Assembly (NCBI GenBank): GCA_040437565.1
Contig: JBDOQK010000035.1
Location: 62,001-126,000, forward strand
Source: Albugo candida
Lineage: Eukaryota
Length of the DNA stretch: 64,000 nucleotides
Direction: 5' to 3'
The first letter of the stretch is position 1; every line of letters begins with the position of its first letter. Below the pieces are notes generated by a model. The model saw only the letters and a list, made by a program, of their open reading frames with translations. It had not been told where the DNA came from and searched no databases. A program made the position numbers and the translations under genes. This document shows positions 17,477-63,814 of this stretch, piece by piece.

Positions 17477-17869
17477 TAGGTTTTTTTGCCCTGAATGTTT
17501 GTTTATATCGTTTTTATCAATAAAGGTCGGATGACAGTCAACTTTGAANNNNNNNNNNNNNNNNNNNNNNNNNNNNNNNNNNNNNNNNNNNNNNNNNNNN
17601 NNNNNNNNNNNNNNNNNNNNNNNNNNNNNNNNNNNNNNNNNNNNNNNNTATCAATAAAGGTCGGATGACAGTCAACTTTGAAAAAAAAGAAAGACTTGAG
17701 ATTGATAGAGTTTGTAAACAGGCATGACGTGGGAGATTGCCATTGGCCAAAAAAGTTCACCAGTCATGACACCCGAAGAGATGCGTCATCGTGGCCATTG
17801 GCAGATCGCTATCCTTTGCGCCAAACGTATCAGATGGTTCAACAACCGTCGATTATATACTCTTTGATT

Positions 17870-23892: not shown

Positions 23893-24724
23893 CTCGCGTA
23901 AACACATCTCGAATGACACACCTGTGATTATTTAATGAATACGATACCGTGTACACAAGGTAGCGTGGCATATTCTAAACTAGGATATCCATCAAATGTA
24001 TACTGTATACCTCGTCAATGTATTCGAATCTGATTCTACTCATTTCTCCGTACGTAACGCTTTGTTCCCTCTTTTCCAAGAAAACCGGTATCACCGACCT
24101 CACCGTTGCAACTCGAATTATTTCCAAGAGTCAGACAAAGTATGACAATGGACGATTTCGTGCAACGAATACGCTGTTTTCTGCAGGAAAAACAGGTATC
24201 AGAAGCTCGTGAGACCTTCCGTCAACTCGTGCAGTTACATGCGCAAGCTCCCATTCTACAACACTTGACATCAATTCTTCGTGATTTTTACTTGGCCGGA
24301 CTTTTTGACTTGGATATTGTATTGGAATTCATCGAATCCCTACCTTGCTGGCAATGGACATTGGATGGATGCGTCATTCTCCACCAAGTCAACACAATTT
24401 TCCGTACGGCTTCCAATCGCTCGTTTTCAGCTGTCCTGACGCTCCCTTTGGCGTACTTTATCCATTCCTTATTACATCGTCTCGAAGACGCCGCTAAAAT
24501 CCGTGCAGATGCGTACTGGTTTGAATGGTTCCCATCGTCTATCCGAGCCATTGTGATGGGCCATCCAGTCACGATACAATCGCCACTTCGAGAGCAAGTG
24601 TTAATCGCTCCCGACTCCCNNNNNNNNNNNNNNNNNNNNNNNNNNNNNNNNNNNNNNNNNNNNNNNNNNNNNNNNNNNNNNNNNNNNNNNNNNNNNNNNN
24701 NNNNNNNNNNNNNNNNNNNTGACA

Positions 24725-34054: not shown

Positions 34055-34546
34055 TTTGTACAATCATGACAAAGTCGACGTATTTGACATACTGAGGCAA
34101 ACTAGTGTGTAAGTACTAATATAGGTATCGATGTTGGTGTTGCCACATTGCCCTAGCTGGTCCATGAGAATCAGCATGTGCACCAATGCACCACTACAGC
34201 TGCTTGTTATCGTCTACTTCATCAGTTATGAGGCGACGCACAATCTTATCAATAAGCAGCATATGTTGGAATAGCATGAAAAATTTGGGGCCAGAACAAG
34301 CGTACGGCTGCAATACAGCTCCTGGACTGTACACAGTCGCAAAGGCTTCTAAACAGATGGTTTATATGCAACAAGAGCAAGCTTATCTCGTCAACTGGAA
34401 AAGTATCAAGACTTGGGATCGATCGATGACTTGGGATCGATCGATGNNNNNNNNNNNNNNNNNNNNNNNNNNNNNNNNNNNNNNNNNNNNNNNNNNNNNN
34501 NNNNNNNNNNNNNNNNNNNNNNNNNNNNNNNNNNNNNNNNNNNNNN

Positions 34547-35260: not shown

Positions 35261-38200
35261 CCGCATGAGCCTCAGTTTCACAATTTGGTTCTCTTTGACC
35301 TGTTTATTATGATATTGGTAGTGATGACTACCATCGTTCTCAATGCAACTAAATAGAGAACTGTCATCAATCGCTGTATGTGATAATATAGCTCTGAAAG
35401 TAAGCTAGAAGATGCAACAATGAAGTCGATTATCACGCGCGGTCGGCGCTTCATGGAAATCACTAAACATTTTTTTCGACGAAATGTAATGGGATAGTTG
35501 CAAAATACGAGAGCTTTTACAACAAGTGGAGAGATTCATGATCGACCCCTTGGCGATTAAAAATAGATTTTGAACACGCCACACGAATACAAACACACGG
35601 AATTTGCACGGTGACACCAAGAGAATGAAGATCGATTTTGATGAGGCTTTGAACTCAGCCGACGTCTTGTAATCATTTACAATGTTTGGCTTGAAGATAC
35701 AATCTACAGCATGTAAGATATGCACACCAGCACTTTTACAGAAGAGAATAGATGACATATTGGATGCACTTGTATACTCTAGCAACCAACATGATGACAG
35801 CAGTGGTTACTTACAATTGAATTCCGTGAGCTGTATGTCATTTGCCACCTCATGCAAGCTGCATTCATTCCGAGAACCTTACTGTAAATGAGTTGAACAT
35901 GTTTTCATCTGTGGCACTGATACTATATCTTCCGCAAAGTCGACTTTTCTACAATTCTCATCAAGTCGTGAGAGGATGACGTCTGAACTGGAGGCTTTGT
36001 ATCTTTCAAGACTACCAAATCGAGTCACTTAGAAGCACCTGATATACGCGTGATCGATGAAGGAAGACCGAACCGATCGTGAGACAACACACGCCTGTTG
36101 GTATTGCATAAACGGTGGTGGTGAAAAATCAATCAGCTTCATGACAATGACTACCGTAATGACCGAATCGCATGTAAACGTATCAAATCTCTTGATGGGC
36201 TAACAATCGATGTGCGCCGGCTGCGGCTGAAAGAGGACGCTTGCGGATCGAATGAGGTTTCTAGCACATGCTCAGGAACACTTTGGTCAATCAAATCGTC
36301 TCTTCGCCAGACGTTGTGCTCATGCTCGAGTTGCGACGCTGTTAGCTTCCAGAATCGATTTATCTGAAGCCATTATGTCGATTTGACAAGTTAGAGTTGA
36401 GCTTTTTAAAAAAGCACGTGCTTTAGCAGCGGAAGAATTTGCGCGCTTAATCGCCAAGTCATTTCCAGCATGCAAAAACACGATAATCAGCTGATTCGAG
36501 ACGACAACAACAGAGGAAATGTTCGACAGTCGCAGGAAAGTTTCACTAAGCGGAGAATTCGCAGAGAACATAAATACAGTATTGCTTCAAGAATGCTTGT
36601 ATTAACTCTAAGCACTAAATGGAAAAATGGTACATTGATGTCACCGGTTCGAAAATGTCGCTGATATGGCATTTGTTAGTGCTAAAGCAATTACCGAAGC
36701 ATCGGGTTGGGAGTTTCCGAATGTCCTTTAGGGAAACGAGGGAGACGAGGTGGACCAGTACCAAAAGAAGCTTGTGGTTCAGGGATAACCTTGGAACAAG
36801 TATGACCGTCATCAGGGTTACAATTAACCGGAGGACTTTCAGGATCAGCTGCTACGCCATTCAGCTTAATTGCGCTCATACGGGTAATGAGGATGATTAC
36901 GCCGAAGAGATAGACAGAAACCATAGTGGATGACTTGGACTTGACTGAACTTCCTACTCAAGCTGATAAGAAGAGTTTTGAGGATTCTGGTCTAGTATAA
37001 TGCTTGTCAGATGGTGATTACCAGTTGCTCTATAACACCGCATACAAAACTTCGCATGATCGAATAAATCTGTATACAGTTTACTGAGGCCCCCGACCAA
37101 TCTCATCTCTTTCCCTGGCGTGCCTGCTACTTCTTGTCGCTTTTCTTTCCCGGCGCAAAAAAGCCACAATCACTCGCCAATTCCATCTCCAATGCTACAG
37201 CCGGATGGAGAATTATGTGGCTTTAAAGTAGCCTCACCAAGTAATGGTTGCAAAAGCGATATCCCTACGGCCAATGAAGGAAGCGTTTTGTTGCATGCTA
37301 GCGAGAGTCTATGCATATGAACGTTGTTCCACTCGAGTAAAGCCTTTTCGCTCGCCGTCCCGAGCTCTGTATAAGCGGGTCATACACCCTTTTTAGATCA
37401 TGAATTTGGAATACGAGAACGATATTTAATAATAGAGATAATGCAAGCGTTTGTAGGCTCTATACCACTGCAACAAAGATCATCCGAAATATTGACCACG
37501 TGCCTATGCGAACTTGAAATCTTGGAATTTCTCACTTCTCGTCCTTCCAAATTCTGTAAATGATTGACAGCAATGCCTTGACAGGCTGCTTCATCCGTCT
37601 TAATACGTAGCTACTCGTAAGACGGAGAAAAGCACACATATACGAGATGGACGAAAGGTTGCGGTATTCGCTATAGCGACGGCAAGCAAAGTCGGAGTAG
37701 TTCTCAATGCATAGGATAGACGTGGTTAGTGTGGCTTGCGTGAAGAGTTGTCGTCGAAGCTCGTGATTTCATAGAATATGATGACCTCGGCGATCAGGAC
37801 GATGAATGCATCATTCCATCTCCGCCAGCTCGATTGCTGATAAGTGTGGCCCTGAAGTAGTCGTCTTTCCTGATCATATAGCACATTCATCGGTAGCTTT
37901 CCTGTAACGTATCGAGCAGCGCTGTCCTGAGAGCTCCGTATTATGTCAGTTGCACTAGATACTACAACCCAACCTAAGAAAGAAAATCAGCCATAGAAGT
38001 GAATATATTAGTAATTCAAAAGAGGTAGCACTAAGTGACTGTAGCCGCTCTTGCAACATGTACTTTGCAGTTTCCAACTTTTAGAGTTTTGCATGCCTTA
38101 TTATCGTTTCATTGTTTTATTACCTTCCTTCTTTGCATTCAATGTACTTTACTGTAGCTTTTCATCAGTAACATAGCCATTCAGCCTATGCTACAATACT

Positions 38201-39149
38201 GACTTGCAAGCTAATAACACCTTTGTCAAATCGACCATCGCTTACAGCATCAGTTTCGATAGTAATGTGGTGGCGTCACTTGTGCTAATCACTCAATAGG
38301 CTCGTTACTGTGCGTGGGCTATTGCGAGCTTCCTGCCANNNNNNNNNNNNNNNNNNNNNNNNNNNNNNNNNNNNNNNNNNNNNNNNNNNNNNNNNNNNNN
38401 NNNNNNNNNNNNNNNNNNNNNNNNNNNNNNNNNNNNNNTGAAACGATAATAAGGCATGCAAAACTCTAAAAGTTGGAAACTGCAAAGTACATGTTGCAAG
38501 AGCGGCTACATGTACTTTGCAGTTTCCAACTTTTAGAGTTTTGCATGCCTTATTATCGTTTCATTGTTTTATTACCTTCCTTCTTTGCATTCAATGTACT
38601 TTACTGTAGCTTTTCATCAGTAACATAGCCATTCAGCCTATGCTACAATACTGACTTGCAAGCTAATAACACCTTTGTCAAATCGACCATCGCTTACAGC
38701 ATCAGTTTCGATAGTAATGTGGTGGCGTCACTTGTGCTAATCACTCAATAGGCTCGTTACTGTGCGTGGGCTATTGCGAGCTTCCTGCCACACGACTCAA
38801 CGACACGAAGAAAAGGACTTGATCGATTTCATACAATAGTGATAGTTCGTTTATAGCACTGCGCCATCACTGGACGACTAAATCTGACATACTTCAATTC
38901 GAATCATCAGATACTCAATTATGTTCAGCATGAAAACAAAAACAGAATCCTCCACTTTCACGAATATTCTTTTCCGTCATGAACTCCACCTTGTTTCACT
39001 GTCACCGCATGTCCGTAGAAGAAACCCTTTCGTGACCTGCACACACACCGAGTCGACACCACATCAAAATCAGTTGGCAGATAAAAATACTGGCACAGGA
39101 AGCGAGATCGGCAACGCAGTTGGAGAAAGAGAATCGAACGAGACTCCAT

Positions 39150-41520
39150 ACAGACAATGAAGTACAGCTACAGAAACGCTGATATCGTTCCTCATTGAAC
39201 AAGTATTTTTTGGAAACATCCTCTATCATCTTTGAATGGATTAATGCCGATACATATGGCCGAACAACCTTCTACAAACAGAAGTGAAATCGAGGATCTA
39301 CTCTAAGAAAGCAAGTCAACTTGCTCCAGTTATTCGCTGTGGCAGCAACTGGTAACACTGCATTATTGCAGGCTCACGGATTCATGCCGTTTTTCTATAT
39401 CGCCTATCCCGACAAGTTCGATACCAGCATTGTGGTCAAGCGCATCAAGTACTTGACAAAGCACTGAATTTGACTCTGAAGTCTGGCTCGCCTTCAATGA
39501 TTGGGCCTATTTGCAAGCTGACATCCATGTGTGGCTTCCTTTTCACGTCATAATGACCCTACGAGAGCTTTTATTTCAGTGTGGCATTATCCGCTTTGAC
39601 GTACCAAGTTTACTTGAAAATGGTTTCTTTCCTCGGTTTGATTTATTGGGCAATTGCATGTAAGATTGGCTACTATTGTGTCTATCACATGTACGCTTCG
39701 TCCCATCAGATATATGAAAGAAACATGCTAGTATCGCGCATCAAAGTGGTCTTAAGGCAGACACGCTGTTCCGGTGTATGGGAAGAAGAGGTCATATTTC
39801 AGTAGAGCACTTAAGTCTGAAGTGGAAGATATGCGAACTGATGCTTAGGTTTTGTCCGGAATCCAATCATTCAGATTGCATATATAATGCGCGAGGAGGG
39901 GTCCTCGACGCCTCTTTTACACAATGGGTATGTACTGTACTCGGGACTTGCCAGGCTATCATCGGTACCACTATCTTGGCATTTTTCCGAGAGAAGCACA
40001 GGCTGGAAGGCTGGGTAGCTTTTCTTCGATTGGTATAGCCAGCCAGATAACATCACAGAATAGAACGTCGACAATCTCGACAGTCCAATAAATTTAAAGT
40101 GAAGGAAAACATTGAACAAGAGAGAACTCGATTGCCCTGGACGTCAGCTTTGCAAGTAAGTACCGGTATAATAAATATTTATGGATGCTCTTCGCGTCAC
40201 AGACCAAGCAAGATGAGCGTATATGGAAAGATGACCTATAGCTCGACGCAGACAGAAGGTCTTCCACCGCTTGTTCAGCGGTAAAATCGAAATCGTAAAA
40301 TTCCCAATGCACGGCCAATGTGCATTCGATCTTTATGCTATCATGCGACGCTTTTTCAGATGAGTTCATACTCAGTGACTATGGAAAATACCTATTGAAA
40401 GATTCTACTCTTCCTCTACAGCTTTTGCATCGTTGGTCACTATTGGTCAATTATATTGCAATGGCTCGTAATTTTTGGTGTTTTAGTTGCTAAGACGCAG
40501 ACAGCTGATCAAAGTATACTTAATGCTAATACGGAAGTGTAAAAATGGCCAATTTTGTGGTTCCAATGTTACAAACTCAAATCTCATTATCGATGATGCT
40601 GACTACGAAGGTGGACCGTGATCGAATTCATCGAAGCGTGATGTCTAATACTCGACTATCGTTTAACTTCGATAAGCTGGATCATCTACATTATCAAAGG
40701 TCTCCTTCTGGAGATGTGTTTGTAAATGCGAAAATTCGAAAAGAGATACTTCCAATGATAGTGGAAGAACTTTCGGCTGCTCGAAAGCAAGCCAAATACG
40801 TCACGAGTCGAGCAGCAGATCCGATGATAAAAGCAGTGCAAGACGGTCGACAATTAGCTCTTGAAATCAGCGTGAATTCTGTTATGGATTTACTGGATCG
40901 TTGCTGTTCAGCTTCCTTGCATTCGAATTGCTTCCAGCTGAACAGTTTATGAACGTCAGTCTCGTGCAACACGTGAAGATGTGTTTAAGTTTGAGTCGCT
41001 AAGAAGATAACTCAGGGATTTCTTCTATCTTCCATCGACTAAGTGTGGGAAAGGTTTTTTCCGATACTGCCTGACGAAGAAAAGCGATACGCAACTTTAC
41101 ACGAATGCATGCAACTNNNNNNNNNNNNNNNNNNNNNNNNNNNNNNNNNNNNNNNNNNNNNNNNNNNNNNNNNNNNNNNNNNNNNNNNNNNNNNNNNNNN
41201 NNNNNNNNNNNNNNNNCAGCTGAACAGTTTATGAACGTCAGTCTCGTGCAACACGTGAAGATGTGTTTAAGTTTGAGTCGCTAAGAAGATAACTCAGGGA
41301 TTTCTTCTATCTTCCATCGACTAAGTGTGGGAAAGGTTTTTTCCGATACTGCCTGACGAAGAAAAGCGATACGCAACTTTACACGAATGCATGCAACTAT
41401 GACAAAGTTGACTCCAAAGACCAGGAGACTTCACGTCGCGACGATACGTGGAAACATTGGAATAGTCGCAGCTTCTTCATCGGCTAGTCTCGAATATTAC
41501 TGAATCGTTTCGTGTTGACA
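39150..41520 (+). pseudogene. POLD1: Degraded DNA polymerase delta catalytic subunit pseudogene
   Basis: Collinear frameshifted remnants: GNTALLQAHGFMPFFY (~39350), LKDSTLPLQLL..NYIAMAR (~40395), DYEGG/VIE (~40600), SPSGDVFVNAKIRKEILPMIVEELSAARKQAK..QDGRQLALEISVNSV (region III), EKRYATL (cf. KKRYAGL) and YDKVDSKDQETSRRDD (cf. DKMDxKGLETVRRDN). Confidence 0.85.
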
Positions 41521-42339
41521 AAGTATTTCGCTGAATCTTTCAGCGCCACCTTTGGGATGTAGACTGGAGTCTTTATTTTATTTTATTCTATCGATGTTCG
41601 AAATGATCAACACAACTGTCGTATTTATTTGGTGCTTTTCTGAGAACGGTGAGGAACGTCTAAAAGCAGTTGCGCCCATCAAGTCAAGTCGCATACGCCG
41701 TTCAATCGACGCTGCTAATGCATTTGGGGACGCCCAAGTTTCGTTCAGCTATTGGATCACTCACTCAGTTGTCCCATTCCTTCTTTGGCAAGCTCCAAGC
41801 TCGAATCGAATTAGCCGCTCCTTCAAGTATCGAGTTTCTCATGATGTGTATTTGTGTGCGTTAAGATGGAAACGCTATAACATAGCCTCATTTGGATTTG
41901 TCTATCGAGTGCTGCATACGGTACTTTGTTAGCTCTCGGCAGTATTTCCGAAAAGAAGCATTATGTATAGCAGCTATCCAAGTGTCGGAGTAGTTCCATT
42001 CGGCCAGAGTGATCAGAGCTAATTCTCACTGCACCGCTTGTTTTCTGGTGGTTTGATGGCTTGCTCGCGTATGCTTTTTTACCTTCGGCGAATCTGGTGC
42101 TATATGGGGCGCTAGCCCGTATTGGCCATACCTTTCTGTTTCTGTTCAAGCTTATTGTTTGTGTCACAACTTGTTTGGCCTTTCAGCTGTATCTTGATAC
42201 AACTGGATCGATCTCGCACGACTCGGCTGATACTTTGTGTTCGTAGGACAAGTCACTTATTCTACCTTTGGCTGTTACCATTATTTTCTCAGTCAGCAGT
42301 CTCAATTAGAAGGATGACCCGATACATGTTGATCCCTTG

Positions 42340-43637
42340 ACTAATTCTTCCTTGCAGATGAGATGAACGACAAGATGTTCTTGGGTGATGTTGATGGTGT
42401 GGAAAAAGACGCATAGCAAAGTGAAAAGATCACGACGACATGCCAGATCGATAACCGGCTGAATAAACGTGTGATTGAGGAACTCCGCAAGGTGTGTACG
42501 GTAAGCATATCAAAGACAAAATAACAGCAAGCGACAGAGAATATCGCGCTGATTGCTGTATGATCAATTCCGCCATCATAATGCCTCAAACTAGTGCCTT
42601 TACAACGTTCGGCGAAAAGTGTCATCATAAGGCCTTCTCCGAACCATATATCACAATGATTGGCCCAAGAAACCGTTCTTGCACTGCATTCTGCCCGTAG
42701 TGTCTCTTCTTCTTCGCATTCTTTTCTTCCTTATCTAAATATGCGACAGCGCTTAATACTTTCCTGCTTAGTATAGGCGCTGTTCAGGTTCCGTATTCTG
42801 GTCCTCTTTGATAGTCTTGCCTTCGATAAAGCGAAATGGACTGTCCTTGCTGTGGAGAAATCGTAACAAGCAGGCGATTTAGCTCGCACCTTCTTCTTCC
42901 ACCTCTAAGTGATTGAGATATTTCTCACAATGCGAAATAGATTCATGTTTGATAGTTATCGATAGAATTGTTGTATCTTGAGAATCGGTCGTGCTTTCCT
43001 GAGAAATCCAAATATGTCTGGCAGATCGGAAGTATCTCAGCCGAACCAGTGAAATATCTTTAACTCCCTGCGCCTCTAAGTCACCTCATTTTATAAGTGG
43101 ATCACATGGATTGATCAAAGCTACACGTGATCACAGCTCGACGATAGGCATGTAGTTTATACAAAAAGTCGATTTGAACTATTTTGTTCGAAACGGAAGC
43201 GTTTCTAGGACTTTTCTGTAAGAATGATAAAGAATTGTGATGACAAGTATTTCTCATGCTGCAATCACCCATTCCATGCAGGATAGTGTTTTCACATAGG
43301 CTGTCTGTGAACATATCCCAATAGAACGTATCTCCAGGTAACATATGAAAAGATTCGAAAGGCCTCAACAATTAAAAGTGACGTGGATTAGAATAGTAAT
43401 GAGGGTGACGATTGCTTAATTCGGAGAAAGGTCGTGATATTGACCAACAGGGCTAAACTCGCATGAATGCTGCATAAAATGTAGCTCAAAAGTAGAATTA
43501 TGGTCAAGTGCAACCACATCACTACATCCCCACCTTCTTGTGATAGCATACAGGCACAAAGAGCTGCAAGCTAAAGGCACGGCAACGAGAAACAGAAGGA
43601 TTGCAGAAAGTGACACTCGGAAGCTGTGTGAATGCAT
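42340..43637 (-). pseudogene. Degenerate secreted-protein (effector-like) gene, copy A
   Basis: Signal-peptide-like MHSHSFRVSLSAILLFLVAVPLA followed by stops and frameshifts; homologous to 48665-49126, 49570-49915 and 56360-58021. The 3' end is approximate. Confidence 0.55.
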
Positions 43638-44514
43638 TCTCTTCAGCTTAAGTGCTCATACTTGCTCCTATTTTCACTTCAAATCAATTAGCATACAAAT
43701 CAAGATTGGTACGAATTTACCGCTGTGGTTTTGTGGAAGAAGCTAATAGTTTTGAATGGATGGAACAAAGGCTTTGAGTCTAGTCAGAAGCTTAGACGAC
43801 AATATAACCTTGGACACTGTCCCAGCTGTGAGGATGCAATAAGATGACTCTTATGATTTTGAACGCCGCCTAAGTTTACAATGGATTGCGTACGCTAAAA
43901 AGCCACAATATTGTGCACGAATAATCCGATCATTTCATCGAAAATGTACCATAATAAGGCCCGTTCCAAAAAGGTAGCGGGAAGGTCTGCGTTCAACTAG
44001 GGGCGGATCGACGCAACTTTTGTGGTTTACATATATTAAAAATACAACTGGGATTTAGAAGGCTCACTATGTCCCACTTCGGGAAAATCGCACTATTCTC
44101 CCATTACACAGAAGTAATATCTGCTTTTGTATGTAGAACATTCTAGAAGTAGTTTAGTGCCACATTAGCTACCCTTCGATATTACTCAGAGCTCCAATGG
44201 TGGTCTCCACTACGGTGATTTCGATATGCAATAGCTGACGACTTAAACAGTCGGCAACGATGCCACGAGCTGATGCACACGCTATCGCGCATCTTGCTAT
44301 TCCCCATCATGCATACGGAACGATCGCGACTGAGTTTCTGCAAATCAACGTTCTCCGTGTGTATCCCTTGCCCTTGATATACTGCTCTTACGCTTGGCAG
44401 ATAACTTCACGGATTTTTAAAAAGTCAGCTGCCAAAAAGCTGATATCCCACTTTCCAGATGAGACATTTGAAGCATGATCACACCGTACACTTTCTGAAG
44501 CAACCAAATTTGTG

Positions 44515-44532
44515 GTCACTTGCAAACTTACC
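44515..44532 (+). promoter_or_regulatory. Oomycete INR+FPR-like core promoter
   Basis: GTCACTTGCAAACTTACC lies 9 nt upstream of ATG 44542, and the identical 18-mer occurs at 62759-62776 upstream of the paralog ATG 62782. Confidence 0.6.
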
Positions 44533-44541
44533 AACCAAATC

Positions 44542-45721
44542 ATGAAGACCGCTATTATGCCCTTTTGCGCATTATCTTTTTCGCAGATACTCCAGCATTC
44601 ATGCGCCCAGATGGAAACCTTCATTACGCGTGTAATTGAAAACGAATCTAGTTTTGGAAATAGCGTGGTTGCAGTTTTTGCTCAAGAAAAAGACGGGAGA
44701 AATACATGGAAATTCGAGCTATCTCCTGCAACCACGCTATTTCTATAACTAGATTCGTTTTCAATTATACGCGTAATGAAGGTTTCCATCTGGGCGCATG
44801 AATACTGGAGTATCTGCGAAAAAGATAATGCGCAAAAGGGCATAACAGAAATTCGAGCTATCTCGGATTGTGGATTCGACAACAGAAAATCACGATTTTG
44901 ATATCAAAGCTCTAGAGCGCGATCCGGATGGTGGACCCAATTTGAGCTCGTTTTCGTTAGATGATTTACTTTGCTGCATCGACTACATTGCATCCATATT
45001 CCATAAGTCATACGATACACAATCAGAGTGTATCCACCCCTCGTCTTCTTTAAATGATTGCCACAAGTTGGTGCTTTCTGCTCCTCTCATCAATGGAATT
45101 TTGGATTCAAAACGTCATCCGAATCTGATAGTCTCCTTGATGCCCCGTATCAGCATGTGTACGAGATGTCACAAAAAAGAGTGGAATTCAGCAGTTCCGG
45201 ATACTGCGGAACTCTTCCATCCGGATAGTGTTTTGATTGGGCCCTTTACTGCTGATATCTCGCTAGGGAACAGCGAACTTGATGTTCAAATGTTTCTCAC
45301 GAGTGAAGAGAAGGTATCTTTTGATTTTGGACTCTTGATAAGTGAGGTTCCGCGTTCTGTATATGATCAAATCAGCAATGTGCAACTCATCCTGGATAAC
45401 AGCGGTGACCCATTCAATTGCGAACTAAGTGAAGATGATAAATGGCCAACCATATCGATCAACTTTCTTCCATCTAAGAAGAAACCTAAGCAGATCTTTT
45501 TATTTACAAAGGAGGAATATATTGTAAGAATACCCAGACGCAAAAATGCGAAACAAATGTGCACCTTGGCCTTGAAAAGCAGCTTGGTAGAGCATTCCTG
45601 GGTCATAGGTGCGACATTTGCCAAGCGTTATAAAGTCGATTTCATGGAAGTAGCCGGTGAGTACGGAGCCGGTCAGTATAGGCTCCAACTCACCGAAGCC
45701 AATCCTCCATCGAATAGGTGA
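44542..45721 (+). pseudogene. Secreted pepsin-fold (aspartic protease-like, non-catalytic) gene interrupted by an inverted self-duplication
   Basis: Signal peptide MKTAIMPFCALSFSQILQHSCA; C-lobe motifs FDFGLL..VP, FNCE..WPTISINF, FTKEEYI, CTLAL and WVIGATFAKRYKVDF. Removing 44726-44864 fuses 44542-44725 in frame to 44865-45721 (346 aa). Confidence 0.75.
44555..44845. repeat. 120-bp inverted repeat (arms 44555-44674 and 44726-44845, 51-nt loop, ~4 mismatches) with 17-bp direct repeat GAAATTCGAGCTATCTC at 44709-44725 and 44848-44864
   Basis: Read directly from the sequence. The ORF track shows the same peptide (MPFCALSFSQILQ..ENESS) on both strands. Confidence 0.95.
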
Positions 45722-45849
45722 AACAGGTACTTTTTTGTTGCAAAAAGGTTAAATAAGTAATTCTTTTTTATACATTTGTTTTCTTTGATGCCTTCTTCTA
45801 CTGTTACTGTATAATACTCGTACGGATATGATAAACCACCTAGTATCCT

Positions 45850-46487
45850 TCAAAGTCTAGTAATGATAGCCAAGGTGCGCCCAACATTTTTCTCGATTCC
45901 TGGTAGCTTGGGTGAAATTTCCTTTCGAAAATGAAGTGAATGGTACCCACTTGCCAATCCAATTGAGCAGTCTGCTATTTTGCAAGATGATTGAAGGCAA
46001 GAGCCGGAGTTTCTTCGTAATGACTTGGCGATACTCGGTCCGACCAAAGACGATAGATATCATGATCATTATGCAATTGGACAAAAACCAGAACTGTGTT
46101 CAACATACCAGCTTTGTCAAAAACTTTGCCGCACTGGTCTCTGTATGTGATTCATGTAGTACAGCAAGTTGTACTTGTTACAATGCCATCAACTACTACA
46201 TCCGATTTCTAGGTCTATATGGGAGTAACATTCGGAAGATCTTGGTCAAAGTAGTAGTTTCATTCTGGTGCTTTGGCTTCAATAGATCGGTAAAAACTAC
46301 TGCAACATCCCATTTTTTTATGATACCATTGGTCTGAGAGCTTTTTGACTCTACATTTTCCATTCTAGCTCAGCGGACCACTGTATCTGCGTCTAAGGCA
46401 GTAATTAAGGCTCCTACGTACACACGACACCAACCTTGTCATTGACACAGACGCTAGTATCACTACCACAGTGATGATGAGATGCAT
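45850..46487 (-). pseudogene. Possible degraded secreted-protein gene convergent with the pepsin-like gene
   Basis: Signal-peptide-like MHLIITVVVILASVSMT followed by early stops; its 3' part resembles 63925-64000. Confidence 0.35.
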
Positions 46488-47599
46488 ATTAACTTCCTGC
46501 TTTACCAATTTCACTCCACTCCTTTCCTTCAGTACCATGGTCTGAACGAACTCGTTATGCAATCGCGCTCGAAAACGCGAAATGATTCGCTATTTTTCTT
46601 CTCCTTGTCTCTATGCTTTTGTTCTTCGTCAATTACGTCACAAATACGTGCCGATTCGGATGTAATTACATTGGCAAACTCGAATCATAAATGCTAGATT
46701 TTGAGAGTACAGCAATCAATGTAATGGTCAGTTATTGGACACGTCGCATGACAAGTGAAGGTTCGGGAAAATTTTGAGGAAATATCTGAAGCTGCAACAT
46801 TTAGTACCGACAGGAGTTTAACTAAGTAAGTGTTCCAAAATGAGGATAAAACCGCTTCACGGTTTAAGGCTGATTACAATCAGTGTGCAAGGATATTTGC
46901 AGATAAATTGATCTGTGCACATGTTCTCATAGGTAGAAGATGACGTACACAGACTATAATTCGGAGCTATAAGATTCAAGCTTTATAAGGGATAGAAAAG
47001 AAACTTGAAGCGAGCTCTTTGTAGTCTATAGTGCATTTGTGGAATGCATTCTTCAAACGGAGATTATAAAACAATGTTGATAGAGAAGTCTTGCCATTTC
47101 GAAGGTTTTTCTAGCTTTATCGATATAGCACTCGTTTCATCTCTGATGTCTGTAGGAAGTATTAGGACACGGCCAACTTCAAAGAACATGCCAAAGCATA
47201 TTTTTACACAAATCCTATCCATGCTCTTGATTCCCTCATTATGTAAACCCATTTTAAAAACACCGTAGTCTTCTGTGTATGGCCAGTGTGCCGAATCGCA
47301 CGAAACGATGATAATGTTTCAAATATCCTCTGGATGTCATCGGAGGACGCTTCGAAGCTGGGTTCTGCGTGTACGACATGACTGCGTTATCTACTAAGAA
47401 CATGTGAGATATTATAATACCAAATCTCTTCGCGAAAAATGGTACATGCGAACAGTATTTTAGAGGCCACATGAAATGGATGGACTTAACAGTGCATCTC
47501 AACGGTCCATGGAAGAAGGTGAATAATCCATCAGACAACACAAGCATTTAGTCGATAGAAACTATCATAGTTTCTAAAGAGGAAGAAGCATCATGATTA

Positions 47600-48664
47600 T
47601 GATGACCAAAATAACCGAAACTCACGTGAAAGGCTTAAGCTCTCTTCATGAGATAGTATTCGATTTGTAGGTAGACGGTGATTCCTTTGAATACAACTCA
47701 GCATCCTGGTATCAAGTGCGCCACGGTGCACACTTCTGCTTCCCAGCCAGCCTTCACTTTCTCGAAGTATTCACTGGCTATCCAGGTACCGGTTTAATGT
47801 CATCAACTTGAATTCTTCCGGCCAATCGCCCCCACAGAAAACTTGTGCCGCAGCCAGTTCATCCAGAATCTGCAAACCCAATCCTTGATGCCCGATAGTA
47901 GCCCCCGATACTCTTCCTTGACCGTAAAACGCTCAATTGGTAGCATCATGTCCTTAGTGCTTGGGATCTTGTGTCCGTAATTCTATGGTAGACGAAATTC
48001 TTCCTCAACCGCCGGACCTGCATTGGTGAAAAGAATTGTTCCGAGGCTCACCATTGCAGTGACGGTGCCAACAACGGTGATGAGTAGTTCTCCGGTGCGA
48101 TCCCTAGCTCTCCAACCGAGCCAGCTCATTCTCTACTTTCACTCGCCGCCAAGAACTGATCTAAAAACGCTTTCTCCAGTTGTCATGTGGACGTTGGAGT
48201 CAGCGATAGGCTGCTTGGTATGATCATTTCGTTCCTGCCCCAGGTCGCGAATCAAACTTCCAATGAGTACTTAGAATATGTACAATCGGTCTCTCTCGTG
48301 TTCAGAGGTACCACTCTCTCTCTTTCGAAGCTAATCCCGCCTTCGCTCGCTCCTGCGCTGAACTGAGCTATAGTCAGCAGAATTAGTAGCGTCTGCGGCA
48401 TCGTGGGTATTTTTGTGGAGTCGCTGGGATCATAAGCTTTTAGCTTGTAGTGCGCCGGAAAAGGTAGATGTAGAACTAAGAGTTTTATTGAATGATGTTA
48501 CCCTGTCCGATCATACTCGGACGTTACCTACGACGCTCTTATGCACGAAGCCAGCAGTCATTGCACTCCAGCATTAACAGTGTCCCAAGAGTTGGGTCGT
48601 CTCTTCAACAATTATAACTCGACGCTAAGCTTGCTATTTCTATACGGGACGTCACGTTAAAACA
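47600..48664 (-). mobile_element. Truncated LTR retrotransposon (putative 5' LTR plus gag remnant)
   Basis: Minus-strand remnant MLPIERFTVKEEYRGLLSGIKDW..WPEEFKLMTLNRYL resembles oomycete LTR gag. The element appears to begin with TG at 48664, right where effector-like copy B is cut. Confidence 0.55.
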
Positions 48665-49126
48665 TTTGTCCCAAAGGGAAGCGTTTCTAGGCTTCTTCGT
48701 AGCAAGCATAAAGAATTGTAATAACAAGTAACTTTTATGCATCAATCAACCATCTTAACCAGGATAGTGCTTACAGATAGCCTTTGATGAATATACCACG
48801 ATAGAACGTCTCTTCGGGTAAGCTATAGAAAGTTTCCATAAGCATGAACAGCTAACAGTGACGTGGAATAATAGGTGGGAACAATAATGAGGATGATCAT
48901 TGCTTAATCGGTACAAAGGTCCTGAATTGGAAAAAAATAGCAAAACTCGCGCGAATGCTGAACAAACATAACGCAGAGATAAAAGTATGACCAAGTGAAA
49001 CCACTTCGCTACATACCCAACTGTGATATCTAAGCAGTATTCAGGAGCAGAGAAGCTAAAGGTCAAGGCACGGCAACGGAAGTCAGAAGGAGCGAAGAGT
49101 GCTACTCGGAAGCTGTTGGAATGCAT
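48665..49126 (-). pseudogene. Secreted-protein pseudogene, copy B (5' half)
   Basis: MHSNSFRVALFA..; nucleotide similarity to 43185-43637. Confidence 0.55.
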
Positions 49127-49164
49127 CCCTCATAATTTCTCAGACTTTAGCTGTTTCAATGAAT

Positions 49165-49567
49165 ATTGAAAAACTCTAGTCTTCCTTTACAGCTTTTGCA
49201 TAGTTTGGTGCACTTTAGTCAATTAATTTGAGATGGCTCGTGGTTTTTGGTGCTCCACTTGCTAGAGCGCGGATACATGATGAAAGTATACTTAATGATG
49301 CTACGGAAGGGTAAGAATGGCAATATAGTGGTTCCAACGTTACAAAGCTTTCAAATCTAAGCAGCTGTTATGCTGGCAAGGAAGATGAATCGCGATCAAA
49401 TCCATCGAAATATTGTACACCGTTTCAAATTGCCAGACTCGAATTAGCCTTCTTATACCCTAAATCCTGCAAATACATGATGTGTGATACTTGCCTCCGG
49501 TCACGCTCAATGAAGTCGATAAGCTGATCATCTAAATTACCAAAGACTTCCTTCTGGAGATGTATTT
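49165..49567 (+). pseudogene. POLD1: Second POLD1 pseudogene fragment
   Basis: Aligns with 40393-40720 and retains a degenerate region II (IARLELAFLYP, cf. IATLDFASLYPS). Confidence 0.75.
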
Positions 49568-49569
49568 GA

Positions 49570-49915
49570 CAGAGAGGAAAAAACGTTTCGCTTATAGATT
49601 CTTCCTTCTCATCTCGTTTATTGCGACACTTCTCATAACAGGAATAGAACGAACGCTCGATGGATATGGTAAACGTTTCTAACTTGATATGTCTAGCGGC
49701 TCGAAGTATCTCAGCTGAACCACTGTTCCTTCTCTTCACCCGTTCCGCCTTTAAGTCACCTCATTTCATAACTGATGACAAATTAACGACCATACAATAA
49801 TCTCAAGATTGCGTGATTGATTAGAGCTATTACGTGGCCACATTGGACTCCAGGACGTCAATTATTCGAAAATGTCGATGTCAAGCCCTTGTCCGAGAGG
49901 AAACGTCTCTAGGAC
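49570..49915 (-). pseudogene. Internal fragment of the secreted-protein family (copy D); duplicated at ~50166-50511 by assembly overlap
   Basis: Similar to 42880-43210 and 57200-57580. Confidence 0.55.
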
Positions 49916-50510
49916 TTAAGATGGGATTAACTTCATCGCAGCATTATCCTTAGTCTTCTCGAGAAACACTCGGNNNNNNNNNNNNNNNNNNNNNNNNNNN
50001 NNNNNNNNNNNNNNNNNNNNNNNNNNNNNNNNNNNNNNNNNNNNNNNNNNNNNNNNNNNNNNNNNNNNNNNNNGATGTGTGATACTTGCCTCCGGTCACG
50101 CTCAATGAAGTCGATAAGCTGATCATCTAAATTACCAAAGACTTCCTTCTGGAGATGTATTTGACAGAGAGGAAAAAACGTTTCGCTTATAGATTCTTCC
50201 TTCTCATCTCGTTTATTGCGACACTTCTCATAACAGGAATAGAACGAACGCTCGATGGATATGGTAAACGTTTCTAACTTGATATGTCTAGCGGCTCGAA
50301 GTATCTCAGCTGAACCACTGTTCCTTCTCTTCACCCGTTCCGCCTTTAAGTCACCTCATTTCATAACTGATGACAAATTAACGACCATACAATAATCTCA
50401 AGATTGCGTGATTGATTAGAGCTATTACGTGGCCACATTGGACTCCAGGACGTCAATTATTCGAAAATGTCGATGTCAAGCCCTTGTCCGAGAGGAAACG
50501 TCTCTAGGAC

Positions 50511-52400
50511 TTAAGATGGGATTAACTTCATCGCAGCATTATCCTTAGTCTTCTCGAGAAACACTCGGCAATATTTTGACCGATGATCAATAAATTTGAT
50601 CAAATACTTATTTCCTAGTCGATCATGTGAATTCATGGGGTCTTTAGGGTCGAAGAGGACGCAATCGATCACATCGATGGTCGAATTCAAGCTGCTGTTC
50701 TTTAGTGAATGTACGTTTATCGTCTGCTTGCCTTTTGCACGTAGCAAGCAGTTAATTCGCCTAAAAGCAGTCAGTCTAACACCAGAGGCAGAAAGCCGGG
50801 CCATCTTGATGATTGTGTCATTACACATATGACCCATACGTTGTTGGAACGGTAATAAGATCCCATGATGAACACCCAAGTTATGTCCATGTTCATTACC
50901 ATTTACGATTGTCACAATCACCGCCTTTTGTGAGCCAAATCCGCGAAAATCGTCAGTCAAAATACCATCGTGAACTGAAATAATTAACACCTTGTTGATA
51001 CGGTCAACTTCCATGATGGGTGCACCGTCAGGATTAATGATGTGCTCCCCAAATTGAATGCGTAATGAACATCGAGAAGTCGGATGATCTTTACAATACC
51101 ATGTGCTTTACCCGGATCATCACACTTACTGGTTTGGAGATCTTTAAGGGTCGTCCATAAGAGGCTGCGGTGAAACATTTTACATGTAATGCGACCGTAC
51201 CGTAGAGAAGATTCAAGTCATTGACCAAATGTTGTCCTAAGACGCTGCCCAAAACCCATTTGCTGGTTGAGCCGGACCGACCATCGCTCACAGAGATAAT
51301 GAAATCTTAATCTTGTCGTTTCTTGCCTTTTTTCTGGCAAACTGCCTTGAGGTGGGATATTTTTCCACATTTATAGCACCTTTTCAAAACGGAATTATCA
51401 GGACGTTTCTTGACCTTTTCGAACTAACTTCTTTCCTTCTTTGGCTCGACGAGGTTTACTATGTCTATACAGAAATATTTGAATCGAATGTCGAGCTACG
51501 TCGATTGTGGAAATTGAACAAGCTCTTCAGCCGGTCGTAGGTAGAAGACCCTATGCACGTCCGGACAGAACAACATCGTCGTGCGGATGGCTGTATCAGC
51601 ACAGCGGACAATGTTGTCTAAGACAAGACTTTCGGTGCCTCTGCACGCGTCACTTCCAGCTTTAATATACAAGAAATGGTCCGCCCTGCTACGCTGCGAT
51701 GATTTGAGCGCAATAACCAGCTTTATGCTCTGGGCAGGTGTTGTCTTGGTACTGGAAATCAGGAGAAACCTTTCATAGCATGCTTCAAGGTTTGATTCTC
51801 ATACTACTACGCTTCCACCTGCCGATGATAATAATTCTGTGCAATGCCTGCAAGGTGCTGACCAACAACACCAGCTTTTACGTATTCAGGCCAGATAAAA
51901 CCAAAGGCACGCTCGGAGAAGACAAACTCTTTTTCCCATTTAAAGAGCTCACTAACAGGTCCATGGTAGAGTGGTAGAGTTCCTTTCCGTCGAAAGGTAT
52001 AAGCGCAATTTTCGTTCGCGAACATTTGGTACATCTCCGGATATCTGAGCAGGTTGTTAATGATCAGAATCTGGTACACGCACATCTGGGTACACTCCTG
52101 CAGGTGCAGCCTGGCAGTGAAATCCAGGGCCAGGTCTCTGACCCGTCCTATGGCTCCCATTCCCCTGAGCCGGTGGGGCAACTAGATACCCAGATTAGGC
52201 TAATCGTCGTGCACCAAAGAAGATGCCCGGCGAGACATTTATCGAATGCTTGGGAGGAGAGTAATGCTCCAAGCTCCGAAGGTTCATACCTGCCCCTGTT
52301 TCTAAAACCAAACTAAACGGTTCTTGAATCCACAAATTTCTTGCTGTGTCGGTTGACTTGTCTAGTCTGTGAGAATTTCATTCTACACATCTGCTCCGAG
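50511..52400 (-). mobile_element. Degenerate Ty1/Copia retrotransposon (gag, zinc knuckle, protease, GAG-pre-integrase, integrase start)
   Basis: Order on the minus strand: FDGKELY..WPEYVKAGVVGQHLAG, CYKCGK..HLKAVC, WVLGSVLGQHLVND, FQQRMGHMCNDTIIKMA and DRLGNKYLIKFIDHRSKYCRVF. Confidence 0.85.
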
Positions 52401-59674: not shown

Positions 59675-60372
59675 NNNNNNNNNNNNNNNNNNNNNNNNNN
59701 NNNNNNNNNNNNNNNNNNNNNNNNNNNNNNNNNNNNNNNNNNNNNNNNNNNNNNNNNNNNNNNNNNNNNNNNNNAACGACGTCATCTCAGTGCTGACATT
59801 ATCAAGGAAGCGTGCTGCTTTTCGTACTACAATGTCTCTTCTGCATGTTTGGAGTATGAATAAGCTATAATTTTCAAAGCAGAAAAATGAGCATAGATGG
59901 CATCGTTCGTTTAAATTTGTATTAATATGTTTGCGTTCGAATCATCTCTTCTTCGTTGGTGCGTACCCGAAAATCAAGGAAGACTGTATTGTACGATCTG
60001 ATTTGTATCATTGTGATTAAAGAGCATATCGTCGACTTGCTACTGTTTGATGAGTCCAACGCAAGACGGTCTTACAGCTTGTAGAAAAGATTTTTCCATT
60101 ATGCTGAGGAAGCTNNNNNNNNNNNNNNNNNNNNNNNNNNNNNNNNNNNNNNNNNNNNNNNNNNNNNNNNNNNNNNNNNNNNNNNNNNNNNNNNNNNNNN
60201 NNNNNNNNNNNNNNGATGAGTCCAACGCAAGACGGTCTTACAGCTTGTAGAAAAGATTTTTCCATTATGCTGAGGAAGCTTTAAAAACTAAGGAGCCTGA
60301 ACTACTCCATATTTATAACTAAACGCATCCAAACGATCGTATTTTACATGAGCAAAGACAACCATACACAAG

Positions 60373-61284: not shown

Positions 61285-62781
61285 TTTTACGGACCCAAGG
61301 TGCCAGATGGAGGGAAATGTCCATACGCAAAGCATTGCGTCGAGTGACGACTATATCTACATCGTCCTACATGTCACTGCCTCTCTTATCCTTTGATATG
61401 GTTTGCAAGACATACCAGCAACAGATGAGTCGTACGAATCTATTTGAGTGTTGAAATTGAGCAGCATGAGCATCTCAACCANNNNNNNNNNNNNNNNNNN
61501 NNNNNNNNNNNNNNNNNNNNNNNNNNNNNNNNNNNNNNNNNNNNNNNNNNNNNNNNNNNNNNNNNNNNNNNNNNNNNNNNNGTTTGCAAGACATACCAGC
61601 AACAGATGAGTCGTACGAATCTATTTGAGTGTTGAAATTGAGCAGCATGAGCATCTCAACCAGCACAAAGGACAAGCTCGGTCTATTTTGCTCGAATTCT
61701 TGTGTTCAGATGATACCGTCACTGCCAGTAATACCTCTCATCGAGGTAGACGTGAAGATGGCGCAAAAATCATCCAGTGATTCGTGGTAGCTTAAGCACT
61801 GAGAGACAGCGCTCCATAGTCGGATGGGTCAACTTTTTACTTACAGGTGGAGGCAAATGGAATTTCTAGAGAAATACTCTACATCTGACGAGATTTATCA
61901 CGGGGATAAGGTCAGATAAACCGTTGACATTCTGCTATAATCCTTTATTCAATGAGCTTAGCACTGAATCATCGTGGAAGTCTAATAGCTGAATTTAATG
62001 ATATATTCTAGATAATATTCAGCTTCAACAATACCAAAACTGCTTGCAACAATAGTCAGTATCGCAACGGTCGAATAAGTATTCGTTCGGCAATACGGAC
62101 GTCGAGGGAATGATCTGCTGGAGCTTCGATTTGATTGCACGCTAAGAATCAACAGAAGAGTGGGCAAATAGACACATCGTCTCATGATAAATGTTAGCTG
62201 AGAAGCGAACCATTCCCGTATTGAACGAACGCGGCGCCGTTTGGAGTTCAAGCAACTTTTGTCGTTTACATGTATTAAGATTTAGAAGGCTTGGTATGTC
62301 CCGCTTTGATAAAAGGCGCTCTTCTCTGTTGAAAATATAACCAATCATCAGACACAAAAGCGAAATCTACTTAAGCTTTTGGATTTAGAACATTCGAGAA
62401 GCAATATAGTGTCACAATAACCATCTATCTATCTTAGTCAGTGCGTCAATGGTGGTCTTGGTTACGGCGATTTTGATATGCAGTTGTCGACAACTAAAAT
62501 AGTCGGCAACGATGCTATGCGCTAATCCATACGCTATCATGCATCTTGCTAAAAATATGATGGATACGGAACGATCGCGACCGAGTTTCCGCGATTCAAT
62601 GTAAAAAAAACCGGAGCCCTGAGAGTACTTGCTCATTTGATTGCTAGATAAGTTTCCCGATTTTGATAAGTCAGCTGCCAGAAAGCTGATATCCTACTAT
62701 TCTGGATGAGACATTAGAAGCTCGATTTAAAGCTCACAGTTTGGAAAGCAACGTTGTAGTCACTTGCAAACTTACCGAACC

Positions 62782-63814
62782 ATGAAGGCCGCTAATTTGC
62801 ACTTATTCGTCCTTTATCTTGCACAGGTAACTCTTTCTTCATGTGGCGTGCATATCCTCCGTCCAGAACTTGTAAAATTGACTGAATTGGATGCTGCCAT
62901 GTTTGTACTTGATGCTAAAAACGCAGGTGAGAATAAATGGGAACTTCAATCAACTGCAAGAGATGCTAAATGGATGTTCACTATCGAAGCTGAAAGATGC
63001 ACATCGTATTTCAACAAAAGAAAACAACCCTTTGAGATGCTGCTTTCCTGTTTATTCGCTATTTCAGATTTGGACGCATCTAATGAGCATCAGCAACTGC
63101 CAAAGTCAAGCTAAACATCGTATCATTCAACAAAAACGAGCCCTGATGTTCGTTCTGGGTAAAAGTTAAGGCTCTCTGCTTCTCTCCTCGATCAAATAAT
63201 TCGCTTAGTACGGCATACGACAATGACCGTTGCCTTGTATTGGGACACACCATTTACGCTTTGTCTCGGTGTCTACCCGACACGTCGCGAAGACGGTTGG
63301 GAAACAATTCCATATTTTTCTTCTCATTTATACCTTGATGAACTTGCAATCGGATACTTTTGTGCGATGATCACGGTGGGGTATGCTTCAACCTATATAT
63401 ATCGGAATGAAGGAAGAGATATTTTGTCCTTTGATTTTGGGCGCTTGAGAAGTGTGATTCCGACTAATATTTATTCGATAATCGTTAATAGCTCGGTAAA
63501 AACACACCAATTCTGATACATTCGACTGCGACTCAGTCCGTCAACTTGATCTGTCTGATACACGGTTCAAAGTCGACAATTTAGAAGAGGATTTGAAGCT
63601 CACAAGTAAAGAATACGTTCAGGAGGTACTCGACAGAAAAGATGATACAAGCCAAGAAAAGTACATTACGGCTTTGGAAGCAATGCCTTCTGTAAAATGG
63701 AGAATGGGCGCGCCGACTCTCAAGCGTCATCCTATGCTACTTTGTGATAATGGCACGGCCATCAACCTGGAAATTCTCTCTTCGCCAAAGAAAAAAGAGC
63801 CACAGGATTTCTGA
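62782..63814 (+). pseudogene. Paralog of the secreted pepsin-fold gene, broken by stops and a frameshift
   Basis: Signal peptide MKAANLHLFVLYLAQVTLSSC; ILSFDFGRLRSVIP, LTSKEYV and WRMGAPTLKRH align with the 44542 copy. The upstream region (~62200-62781 vs ~43950-44541) and downstream TAATACTCGTACGGATATG are conserved. Confidence 0.7.

Follow-up and report, generated by a model that had tools for sequence, protein, structure and literature searches.

Inverted copies of gene sequence are known from several systems. Drosophila hairpin RNA (hpRNA) loci and young plant MIRNA genes originate by inverted duplication of the genes that they come to target, and in bacteria the precise excision of transposons and the deletion of quasipalindromes take place between direct repeats that are brought together by the hairpin of a palindrome. 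A short-range, orientation-reversing template switch with four switch points is said to have been modelled by Loytynoja and Goldman, and template-switch mutations were reportedly treated by Walker et al. in 2021. Excerpts of PMC8794818 (Monttinen and Loytynoja 2022) report that template switching creates new hairpins by way of long reverse-complement insertions, one of which is a microRNA stem. For oomycetes, passages of PMC3804510 (Fahlgren et al. 2013) rank the inverted repeats of Phytophthora first among sources of 21-nt RNA per Mb, with one 714-nt inverted repeat yielding heterogeneous 21-nt small interfering RNAs (siRNAs). The locus considered here is a putative secreted-protein gene of the oomycete Albugo candida, situated at 44542-45721 of a 64,000-nt stretch of contig JBDOQK010000035.1 (assembly GCA_040437565.1, positions 62,001 to 126,000 of the forward strand; called the window below, with all positions given in its numbering), and its coding sequence is interrupted by an inverted copy of its own 5' end.

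The locus is probably a unitary, fixed pseudogene that arose from one templated inverted insertion. Because the insert shifts the frame and introduces a stop codon at 44746, a 346-residue, predicted secreted pepsin-like protein can no longer be made from its ATG. The inserted sequence and its arrangement support well an origin by templated inverted insertion, whereas the roles that have been suggested for the resulting hairpin, as a reversible switch or as a source of silencing RNA, are weighed below against the evidence from independent isolates, relatives and predicted structure.

Anatomy of the interrupted gene

A repeat search finds two inverted arms of 123 nt that are 96% complementary and have 51 nt between them (44552-44674 and 44726-44848). 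Within the 120-nt core of the arms (44555-44674 and 44726-44845) there are exactly four mismatches, at 44596, 44632, 44654 and 44656, and a fifth appears at 44554 once the arms are extended by three bases. The insertion is closed by a 17-nt direct repeat, GAAATTCGAGCTATCTC, which is present in exact copies at 44709-44725, in the loop, and at 44848-44864, where its first base coincides with the last base of the right arm. This hairpin is the longest of only three inverted pairs in the 64-kb window (at least 30 nt, at most 2 kb apart). The RNA of 44515-44870 is predicted to fold with a free energy of -227 kcal/mol, as against -79.3 +/- 6.0 kcal/mol for 100 shuffled sequences (z = -24.7; 0 of 100 as stable), in agreement with an earlier reading of the DNA from its letters alone (the sequence-only reading) that had expected a stem of about 120 bp in the transcript. 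The length rank of the inverted repeat and the z score of the fold together place the structure far beyond chance.

The open reading frame (ORF) that begins at the ATG at 44542 enters the inverted copy and terminates there at a TAA codon (44746-44748), giving a product of 68 residues. The frame that follows the insert is open over 285 codons, is displaced by +1 relative to the ATG frame, and starts with the residues RIVDSTTENH, while the upstream piece ends in ...WKFELS. The displacement is explained by the length of the insert, 139 nt (139 = 3 x 46 + 1). When the insert is removed, the two pieces join to 61 + 285 = 346 residues, and the insert is the sole lesion in this allele. Thus, the features on which the sequence-only reading was built were recovered as described: the inverted self-copy of about 120 bp with some four mismatches and a 51-nt loop (on which the repeat search and a base-by-base comparison agree), the exact 17-bp direct repeat, the stop at 44746-44748, and the 346-residue ORF that results from deletion of 44726-44864 with no other lesion.

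Origin of the insertion

The arrangement of the insert is suggestive of a single copying error, as the sequence-only reading had proposed in invoking a template-switch type of origin. During replication or break repair, synthesis of the new strand would have proceeded as far as 44725, moved over to the complementary strand, and run back from 44674 to about 44552 or 44555, which yields the reverse complement. It would then have rejoined its initial template at 44709, 17 nt before the point of exit, and continued from there. The net gain of this one event would be 139 nt, made up of about 122 inverted and 17 re-copied nucleotides. A single template switch would thus account for both the hairpin and the 17-nt 'bracket' without any transposon, and the bracket, judged by its position, would be a re-copied segment and not a target-site duplication. 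At the protein level, one such event covers every difference from the ancestral junction WKFELS|RIVD, as it is read in the relative P0004; the junction is diverged in the paralog within the window.

Microhomology at the switch points amounts to 0 nt at 44725|44726 and to 1 nt (the G at 44848) at the return point. Such short microhomology at both junctions is as compatible with another route, end joining with templated (snap-back) synthesis at a break near 44725, as it is with a switch at a fork, and polymerase-theta-type end joining does leave templated reverse-complement insertions as its footprint. This route is nonetheless unlikely, since about 122 nt copied at an offset of 51 nt from the break would be long for the pathway, and the 17-nt re-copy is more simply understood as a return behind the exit point.

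The insert in independent isolates

Logan contigs of four public runs (X1 from 2015, X4 from 2021, X8 from 2024, and X20) were aligned to 44300-45300; the comparison takes in three DNA runs, out of 19 runs that contain at least half of the query words. The first junction (44725|44726) is crossed in X1 and X4 by a 197-nt contig, 44602-44798, with 0 differences. The second junction, together with the second repeat copy, is contained in contigs that start at 44816 in X1, X4 and X8 and that have 32 nt on the left side of the junction. The contigs of X1 and X4 leave 44585-44601 uncovered and those of X8 leave 44708-44809 uncovered, so that coverage of the first junction comes from X1 and X4 only; X8 also has a 10-nt loose end at 44700, which we take to be sequencing adapter. 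Independent data across the junctions, to which the sequence-only reading had looked as a safeguard, are therefore at hand for both junctions in X1 and X4 and for the second also in X8.

The depth of the junction contig is 110.7 against 124-134 for its flanks in X1, and 57.4 against about 57 in X4, and the contig is unbranched over 44602-44798. An unbranched junction contig at the depth of its flanks indicates that the insert is homozygous. The k-mers common to both arms have about double depth. A joint skipping the 139 nt was seen in none of the four runs, and no insert-free form, that is, none of the alleles 139 bp shorter that the sequence-only reading had envisaged, was found in any of the three DNA runs.

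The runs do not represent a single haplotype. For instance, X1, X8 and X20 share 45174 A>G, and X4 is distinguished by 44916 A>T and 44934 G>T; with single-nucleotide polymorphisms (SNPs) differing among the runs, the insert is common to at least three haplotypes, that of the window included. In the protein databases, the variants P0002, P0006 and P0007 all start at a GTG codon located after the in-frame TAA of the insert at 44843, which are the start points that would be expected if the insert is carried there too. A full-length protein was found in none of the four members of the 90% protein cluster, nor in two database searches able to show one. The 68-residue truncated ORF had no candidate among proteins of similar length, and its exact sequence is absent from the protein collection. 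In metagenome scans for relatives or other alleles, 63 protein-guided pattern matches were obtained, none of which was confirmed, and an exact 33-nt pattern gave 0 matches. In the upstream contig (44300-44584), X1, X4 and X8 each show one unlisted differing letter near the contig end, perhaps a base specific to the reference, perhaps a tip of the assembly graph.

The recurrence of the junctions bears directly on whether the hairpin is an assembly or library chimera, an explanation that is extremely improbable. The assembly does contain artefacts: at 10 of its 14 gaps in the window, sequence from before the gap recurs behind it with 99.7-100% identity, and one gap edge carries a perfect fold-back of 72 nt. 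However, no gap comes within 3 kb of the hairpin (the nearest are at 41117-41216 and 49974-50073), its arms differ at four to five sites, which is not expected of a chimera, and both junctions recur in independent runs from other years, studies and haplotypes. The chimera is thus already refuted, unless all of the runs share one contaminated template, and the differing SNPs argue otherwise. The coordinates of the locus, and of other features of the window, are collected in Table 1.

Table 1. Positions of the interrupted gene, its hairpin and other features in the window
Feature	Position	Strand	Description
Truncated reading frame	44542..44748	+	61 original codons (signal-peptide-like N-terminus), 7 insert codons, TAA
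Left arm	44552..44674	+	Original sequence, codons 5-45; putative template of the inverted copy
Hairpin loop	44675..44725	+	51 nt of original coding sequence, ending in direct repeat copy 1 (17 nt, 44709-44725)
Right arm	44726..44848	+	Inverted copy of 44552-44674; G 44848 also belongs to repeat copy 2
Direct repeat copy 2	44848..44864	+	17 nt, putatively re-copied; closes the 139-nt insertion 44726-44864
Downstream frame	44864..45721	+	285 codons + stop, out of frame with the ATG; DST at residues 4-6, FDFGLLISEVP, predicted pepsin-like C-terminal lobe
Publicly annotated remnant	45155..45721	+	188 aa; P0005, identical sequence
INR+FPR-like core-promoter element	44516..44531	+	TCACTTGCAAACTTAC; 11-26 nt upstream of the ATG; 2 mismatches to YCAYTYYNNMWTTTNC
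Degraded paralog	62782..63775	+	Same family; stop(s) and frame change at ~63500; pieces of 110 aa and 97 aa; 18 kb downstream
Gaps with repeated flank	301-400, 6545-6644, 17549-17648, 24620-24719, 34447-34546, 38339-38438, 41117-41216, 49974-50073, 60115-60214, 61482-61581		
Fold-back at gap edge	38033-38111 and 38439-38563		

Ancestral state and age of the insert

The direction of the change can be read from relatives of the gene. P0004, a protein of 148 residues that shares 93% identity with the N-terminal piece (61 residues), runs through the insertion site as ...WKFELSRIVDST... without interruption, and the paralog within the window reads ..NKWELQSTARD.. over the equivalent site. As both read through the site, the insert is the derived state. 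Comparison of the arm mismatches with P0004, made on the encoded residues, assigns the older state to the left arm at two sites (44554 and 44596) and to the right arm at two others (44632 and 44654), with 44656 ambiguous. For instance, the inverted copy encodes RIIENESSY.., as in P0004, where the present gene has RVIENESSF.... All of the changes in the coding left arm alter the residue, and there is thus no sign of constraint on the N-terminus, as expected of a dead gene under neutral drift. Over the covered parts of the arms X1, X4 and X8 do not differ, so that the differences between the arms predate the isolates of 2015, 2021 and 2024. Changes in both arms point either to an old event or to a divergent allele as the template of the copy, and a divergence of about 3% in residues between haplotypes is known from P0007.

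Accordingly worded as a sequence of events, the insertion would have arisen after the split from an insert-free relative and would have become fixed, or nearly so, in this Albugo species. It may later have behaved as neutral sequence, with substitutions accumulating in both arms, unless the copy was taken from a divergent allele instead, and the RNA or DNA hairpin would be a by-product of the event and not a device.

Loss of the reading frame is not confined to this allele. P0004 is frameshifted near 44999 and then stops, and P0007 goes out of frame close to its end, which can be read as a deletion of a length not divisible by three. Another family member, 18 kb downstream in the window, is broken into two pieces (Table 1), and in two species the public models extend over no more than the C-terminal 188-198 residues. 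Such decaying relatives would fit loss of the gene rather than its regulation. In the downstream frame, all three SNPs are non-synonymous by codon reading. The openness of that frame was considered as a sign of constraint and rejected, as under simulated random substitutions a 285-codon frame stayed free of stops in 55% of trials at 2% substitution and in 30% at 4%; the open frame therefore says little either way.

Possible splicing and reversion

Two further explanations would allow the gene to function in spite of the insert. In the first, the insert is spliced out as an intron and a slightly shortened, functional secreted protein is made. Several GT...AG pairs would restore the frame, for instance 44674..44848 (175 nt) and 44632..44848 (217 nt), and the G at 44632 that creates one of the GT dinucleotides is a change specific to the left arm. 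However, the frame is restored by 20 of the 66 GT-AG pairs, which is the one third expected by chance, and no donor resembles a strong splice site by the oomycete consensus. The contig of X20 runs unspliced through all six donors to 44718, an observation that counts only if X20 is RNA, and the relatives of the gene are broken by lesions of other kinds. Splicing of the insert is, on this evidence, very unlikely.

In the second, the gene is in a revertible off-state, whereby slippage or single-strand annealing between the 17-nt repeats restores it and the population holds both states; this is the reversible off-switch that the sequence-only reading had put forward as a possibility. The repeats are indeed exact, loss of one repeat together with the inverted arm leaves the original frame, and long palindromes are fragile in many organisms. 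The observations from isolates do not bear this out: none of the three DNA runs has a shorter form, the junction contigs are of full depth and unbranched over 44602-44798, as a homozygous insert requires, and neither the four cluster members nor the two database searches provide a full-length protein. The arms have diverged by about 4%, which indicates that the insert has been long persistent. In the hairpin, moreover, the second repeat adjoins 44535-44551 and not the first repeat, so that the fold does not promote the deletion, and a forward insertion that is unrepeatable does not make a switch. A population in which both states are maintained is thus highly improbable, and from the arrangement of the repeats the locus would be at most a one-way revertible lesion, with the insertion itself a unique event.

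The interrupted protein and its family

The gene appears to have encoded a secreted pepsin-like protein of about 346 residues, the signal peptide being judged by hydrophobicity. The closest named protein is the uncharacterised Albugo candida protein CCI41575.1 (P0003), with 79-83% identity over the C-terminal 183-198 residues, and the public 188-residue model P0005 is identical in sequence to the corresponding part of the window. An exhaustive search returned 19 relatives. Those of full length have 324-378 residues, share the same hydrophobic N-terminus, and read '..G.N.W.L..' where the insert sits here; the N-terminus of the interrupted ORF aligns with the N-termini of these full-length members. 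In the C-terminus of CCI41575.1 a segment of about ten residues (EQYRLQLTEA) occurs twice in tandem; the protein of the window lacks this repeat.

The pepsin-like assignment comes from the family and from the predicted structure. In a Pfam scan the protein of the window (P0001) has no match to PF00026, the eukaryotic aspartyl protease family, whereas nine of the 12 relatives scanned match its C-terminal part weakly. The cut-off of 19.9 bits is reached by three of the 12 (P0008 with 23.2, P0010 with 19.9 and P0019 with 22.4), six remain below it, and three are without a match. A profile of the family matches renin (E = 9.3e-10), chymosin and cathepsin D. The AlphaFold model of P0001 has a mean predicted local distance difference test (pLDDT) score of 58.9, with residues ~125-280 at 70-90 and the N-terminal half below 50. 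In a Foldseek search, the 46 top matches listed are pepsin-family chains only, the best being plasmepsin X (7tbd; E = 2.6e-6, probability 1.00). A match of the pieces of the window to NAD_binding_8 (E = 0.17; 12.6 bits against a cut-off of 21.9) was taken as noise.

The catalytic D-T/S-G motif (regular expression D[TS]G) is found in neither piece of the protein. In its place are DST (residues 4-6) and DFG (residues 154-156, in the family motif FDFGxLxSEVP), which would occupy the catalytic positions. The encoded pepsin-like protein was therefore probably non-catalytic and not an active protease, and its family, by the same features, appears to be of an Albugo type, made up of secreted proteins whose C-terminal lobe is pepsin-like and which lack the D-T/S-G motif. 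The RxLR, CRN and CHXC classes of effector are defined by an N-terminal RxLR(-dEER), LxLFLAK or CHxC motif after the signal peptide. Neither piece contains an RxLR(-dEER), LxLFLAK or CHxC motif, and 'effector-like' is a possible description of the protein.

Promoter, transcript and the hairpin as a possible RNA gene

The sequence-only reading had described the core promoter as intact. An INR+FPR-like element is present upstream of the ATG, with TCACTTGCAAACTTAC recurring unchanged upstream of the paralog at 62760-62775, and to this extent the description holds; the motif is a weak one, however, as the + strand of the window has 53 matches when up to two mismatches are allowed. The definition of the element, YCAYTYYNNMWTTTNC, is the Phytophthora (P. 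infestans) consensus given in excerpts of PMC3599244. The upstream ~290 nt (44250-44541) are about 80% identical to the promoter region of the paralog, and the coding part is less conserved. As to transcription, no run that contains the sequence is listed as RNA, and X20, guessed to be an RNA run, has two low-depth contigs (44435-44718 and 45105-45300+) that could equally be low-coverage DNA.

The machinery that could act on such a hairpin is likely to be present. Oomycetes, Albugo included, have Dicer-like (DCL) and RNA-dependent RNA polymerase (RDR) genes according to passages of PMC4791657, in keeping with the Dicer pathways on which the sequence-only reading relied, and the same passages describe variant RNase III motifs in A. 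laibachii DCL2. Infection by A. laibachii is unchanged on the Arabidopsis ago1 mutant, as stated in excerpts of PMC7297541, which bears on cross-kingdom RNA interference alone.

The locus could on these grounds be a young locus of the hpRNA or proto-microRNA type, whereby a conserved promoter drives a stem that is diced to siRNAs, and these silence their own locus, an allele that is intact, or a nearly identical copy elsewhere. The very stable stem (-227 kcal/mol, z = -24.7), the conserved promoter-like element, the 21-nt small RNAs that Phytophthora inverted repeats yield in the passages of PMC3804510, and the DCL and RDR homologues of Albugo (PMC4791657) are all in its favour, and excerpts of PMC10292708 and PMC10317233 indicate that hairpin loci of Drosophila can gain such roles. 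What is missing is a target. In whole-assembly contigs of X1, X4 and X8 there is no second copy at least 90% like the arms, only short pieces of the paralog's promoter and start being aligned; the paralog within the window, ~55-70% alike to the arms region, is too diverged to serve; and no intact allele to silence was found. The silencing of other alleles or close paralogs suggested by the sequence-only reading is thus not supported. In addition, the four to five mismatches between the arms include only two that form G:U wobbles in the sense RNA, with none compensated, and the variant RNase III motifs of A. laibachii DCL2 (PMC4791657) are a further point against this reading. A silencing locus of this type is quite unlikely. 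In a search of Rfam (E up to 1), a nematode snoRNA model gave mirror-image matches on the two arms at 19.4 bits, against a gathering threshold of 52, and was set aside as noise.

A bolder version of this idea would make the template switch the birth of a hairpin-RNA gene, with an infection-type promoter and siRNAs directed against the 5' ends of its own family, fixed by selection either for silencing or for loss of a host-recognised protein, and with deletion between the 17-nt repeats as a rare escape. It is decidedly unlikely.

Several observations nevertheless weigh against a fixed pseudogene of template-switch origin. Contigs lose rare variants, and three DNA runs leave room for rare insert-free alleles. 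The outgroup evidence for an insert-free ancestor is at the level of protein. The downstream frame of 285 codons is still open, and microhomology of 0-1 nt suits end joining with templated synthesis equally well. Finally, a promoter-like block has been kept between the paralogs, such that the locus may still be transcribed, and X20 has its low-depth contig over 44435-44718 (depth 2.4). Set beside the recurrence of the insert at full depth in differing haplotypes, the uninterrupted relatives and the decay of the family, these points temper the conclusion that the locus is a pseudogene created by one templated inverted insertion, which is still the probable one.

Gaps and other features of the window

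The window contains 14 gaps of 100 N. At 10 of these (Table 1), 34-714 nt just before the gap are repeated after it at 99.7-100% identity. Such repeats look like unmerged contig overlaps, in effect artificial tandem duplications, and any 'duplication' that adjoins a gap in this genome deserves distrust. After the gap at 38339-38438 there is a perfect 72-nt fold-back, in which 38439-38510 is the reverse complement of 38040-38111, followed by a repetition of 38053-38338. In contrast to the hairpin at 44.6 kb, this fold-back is probably an artefact of a palindromic contig end. The stretch from 38000 to 52000 is gene-poor, with four ATG-initiated ORFs of at least 120 codons in 14 kb; the remnant studied here is among them, and others are at 40545-40952 and 50511-51014.

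Implications

As a clean natural case that recurs in several isolates, the locus documents what is probably a template-switch insertion of considerable length (~120 nt) in an oomycete. If it arose as proposed, one replication or repair error both killed a gene and made a hairpin, the latter being thought of as the raw material of hairpin-RNA genes. The mutation is of a known type, and no new mechanism is required. The annotation is corrected as well, in that the public 188-residue model represents only the end of a gene of 346 codons, which the insertion interrupts at about codon 62 and which belongs to a diverged pepsin-like family lacking catalytic motifs. Together, the insert, the frameshift of a relative and the broken paralog 18 kb away amount to repeated, independent decay within one family, a birth-and-death pattern that is common among host-interaction genes.

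Comparison with known systems

The closest parallel is with template-switch mutations as they are described in excerpts of PMC8794818, where, as here, a nearby reverse complement replaces or extends a stretch of sequence in one event and a perfect stem results. The present case differs from those excerpts in its extent and outcome, with about 120 nt and a 17-nt re-copy placed inside a coding gene, and the death of that gene in place of a new structured RNA.

Drosophila hpRNA loci and young plant MIRNA genes share with this locus an inverted copy of part of a coding gene and a long, near-perfect fold-back that Dicer could cut. In those systems, however, the hairpin is at a separate locus and silences an intact parent in trans, with the small RNAs shown, whereas here the hairpin is inside the only copy and destroys it. 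Similarly, pin-IR2758 of Phytophthora, as described in passages of PMC3804510, is an oomycete inverted-repeat locus with a predicted hairpin RNA, but the inverted-repeat loci in those passages are defined by sequenced small RNAs and the locus here is known from its sequence alone.

In the case of bacterial precise excision, short direct repeats stand beside an inverted repeat, and deletion between them restores the original sequence, as it would here. There, the repeats flank the whole palindrome and are joined by its hairpin; here, they flank one arm, and one of the two lies in the loop. At the level of the protein, the comparison is with the pepsin-like A1 proteases (PF00026), whose fold is shared, by prediction, by the C-terminal lobe of the interrupted gene product. 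Those enzymes carry two catalytic Asp-Thr/Ser-Gly motifs, whereas the protein of the window has no D-T/S-G and an N-terminal half with pLDDT below 50.

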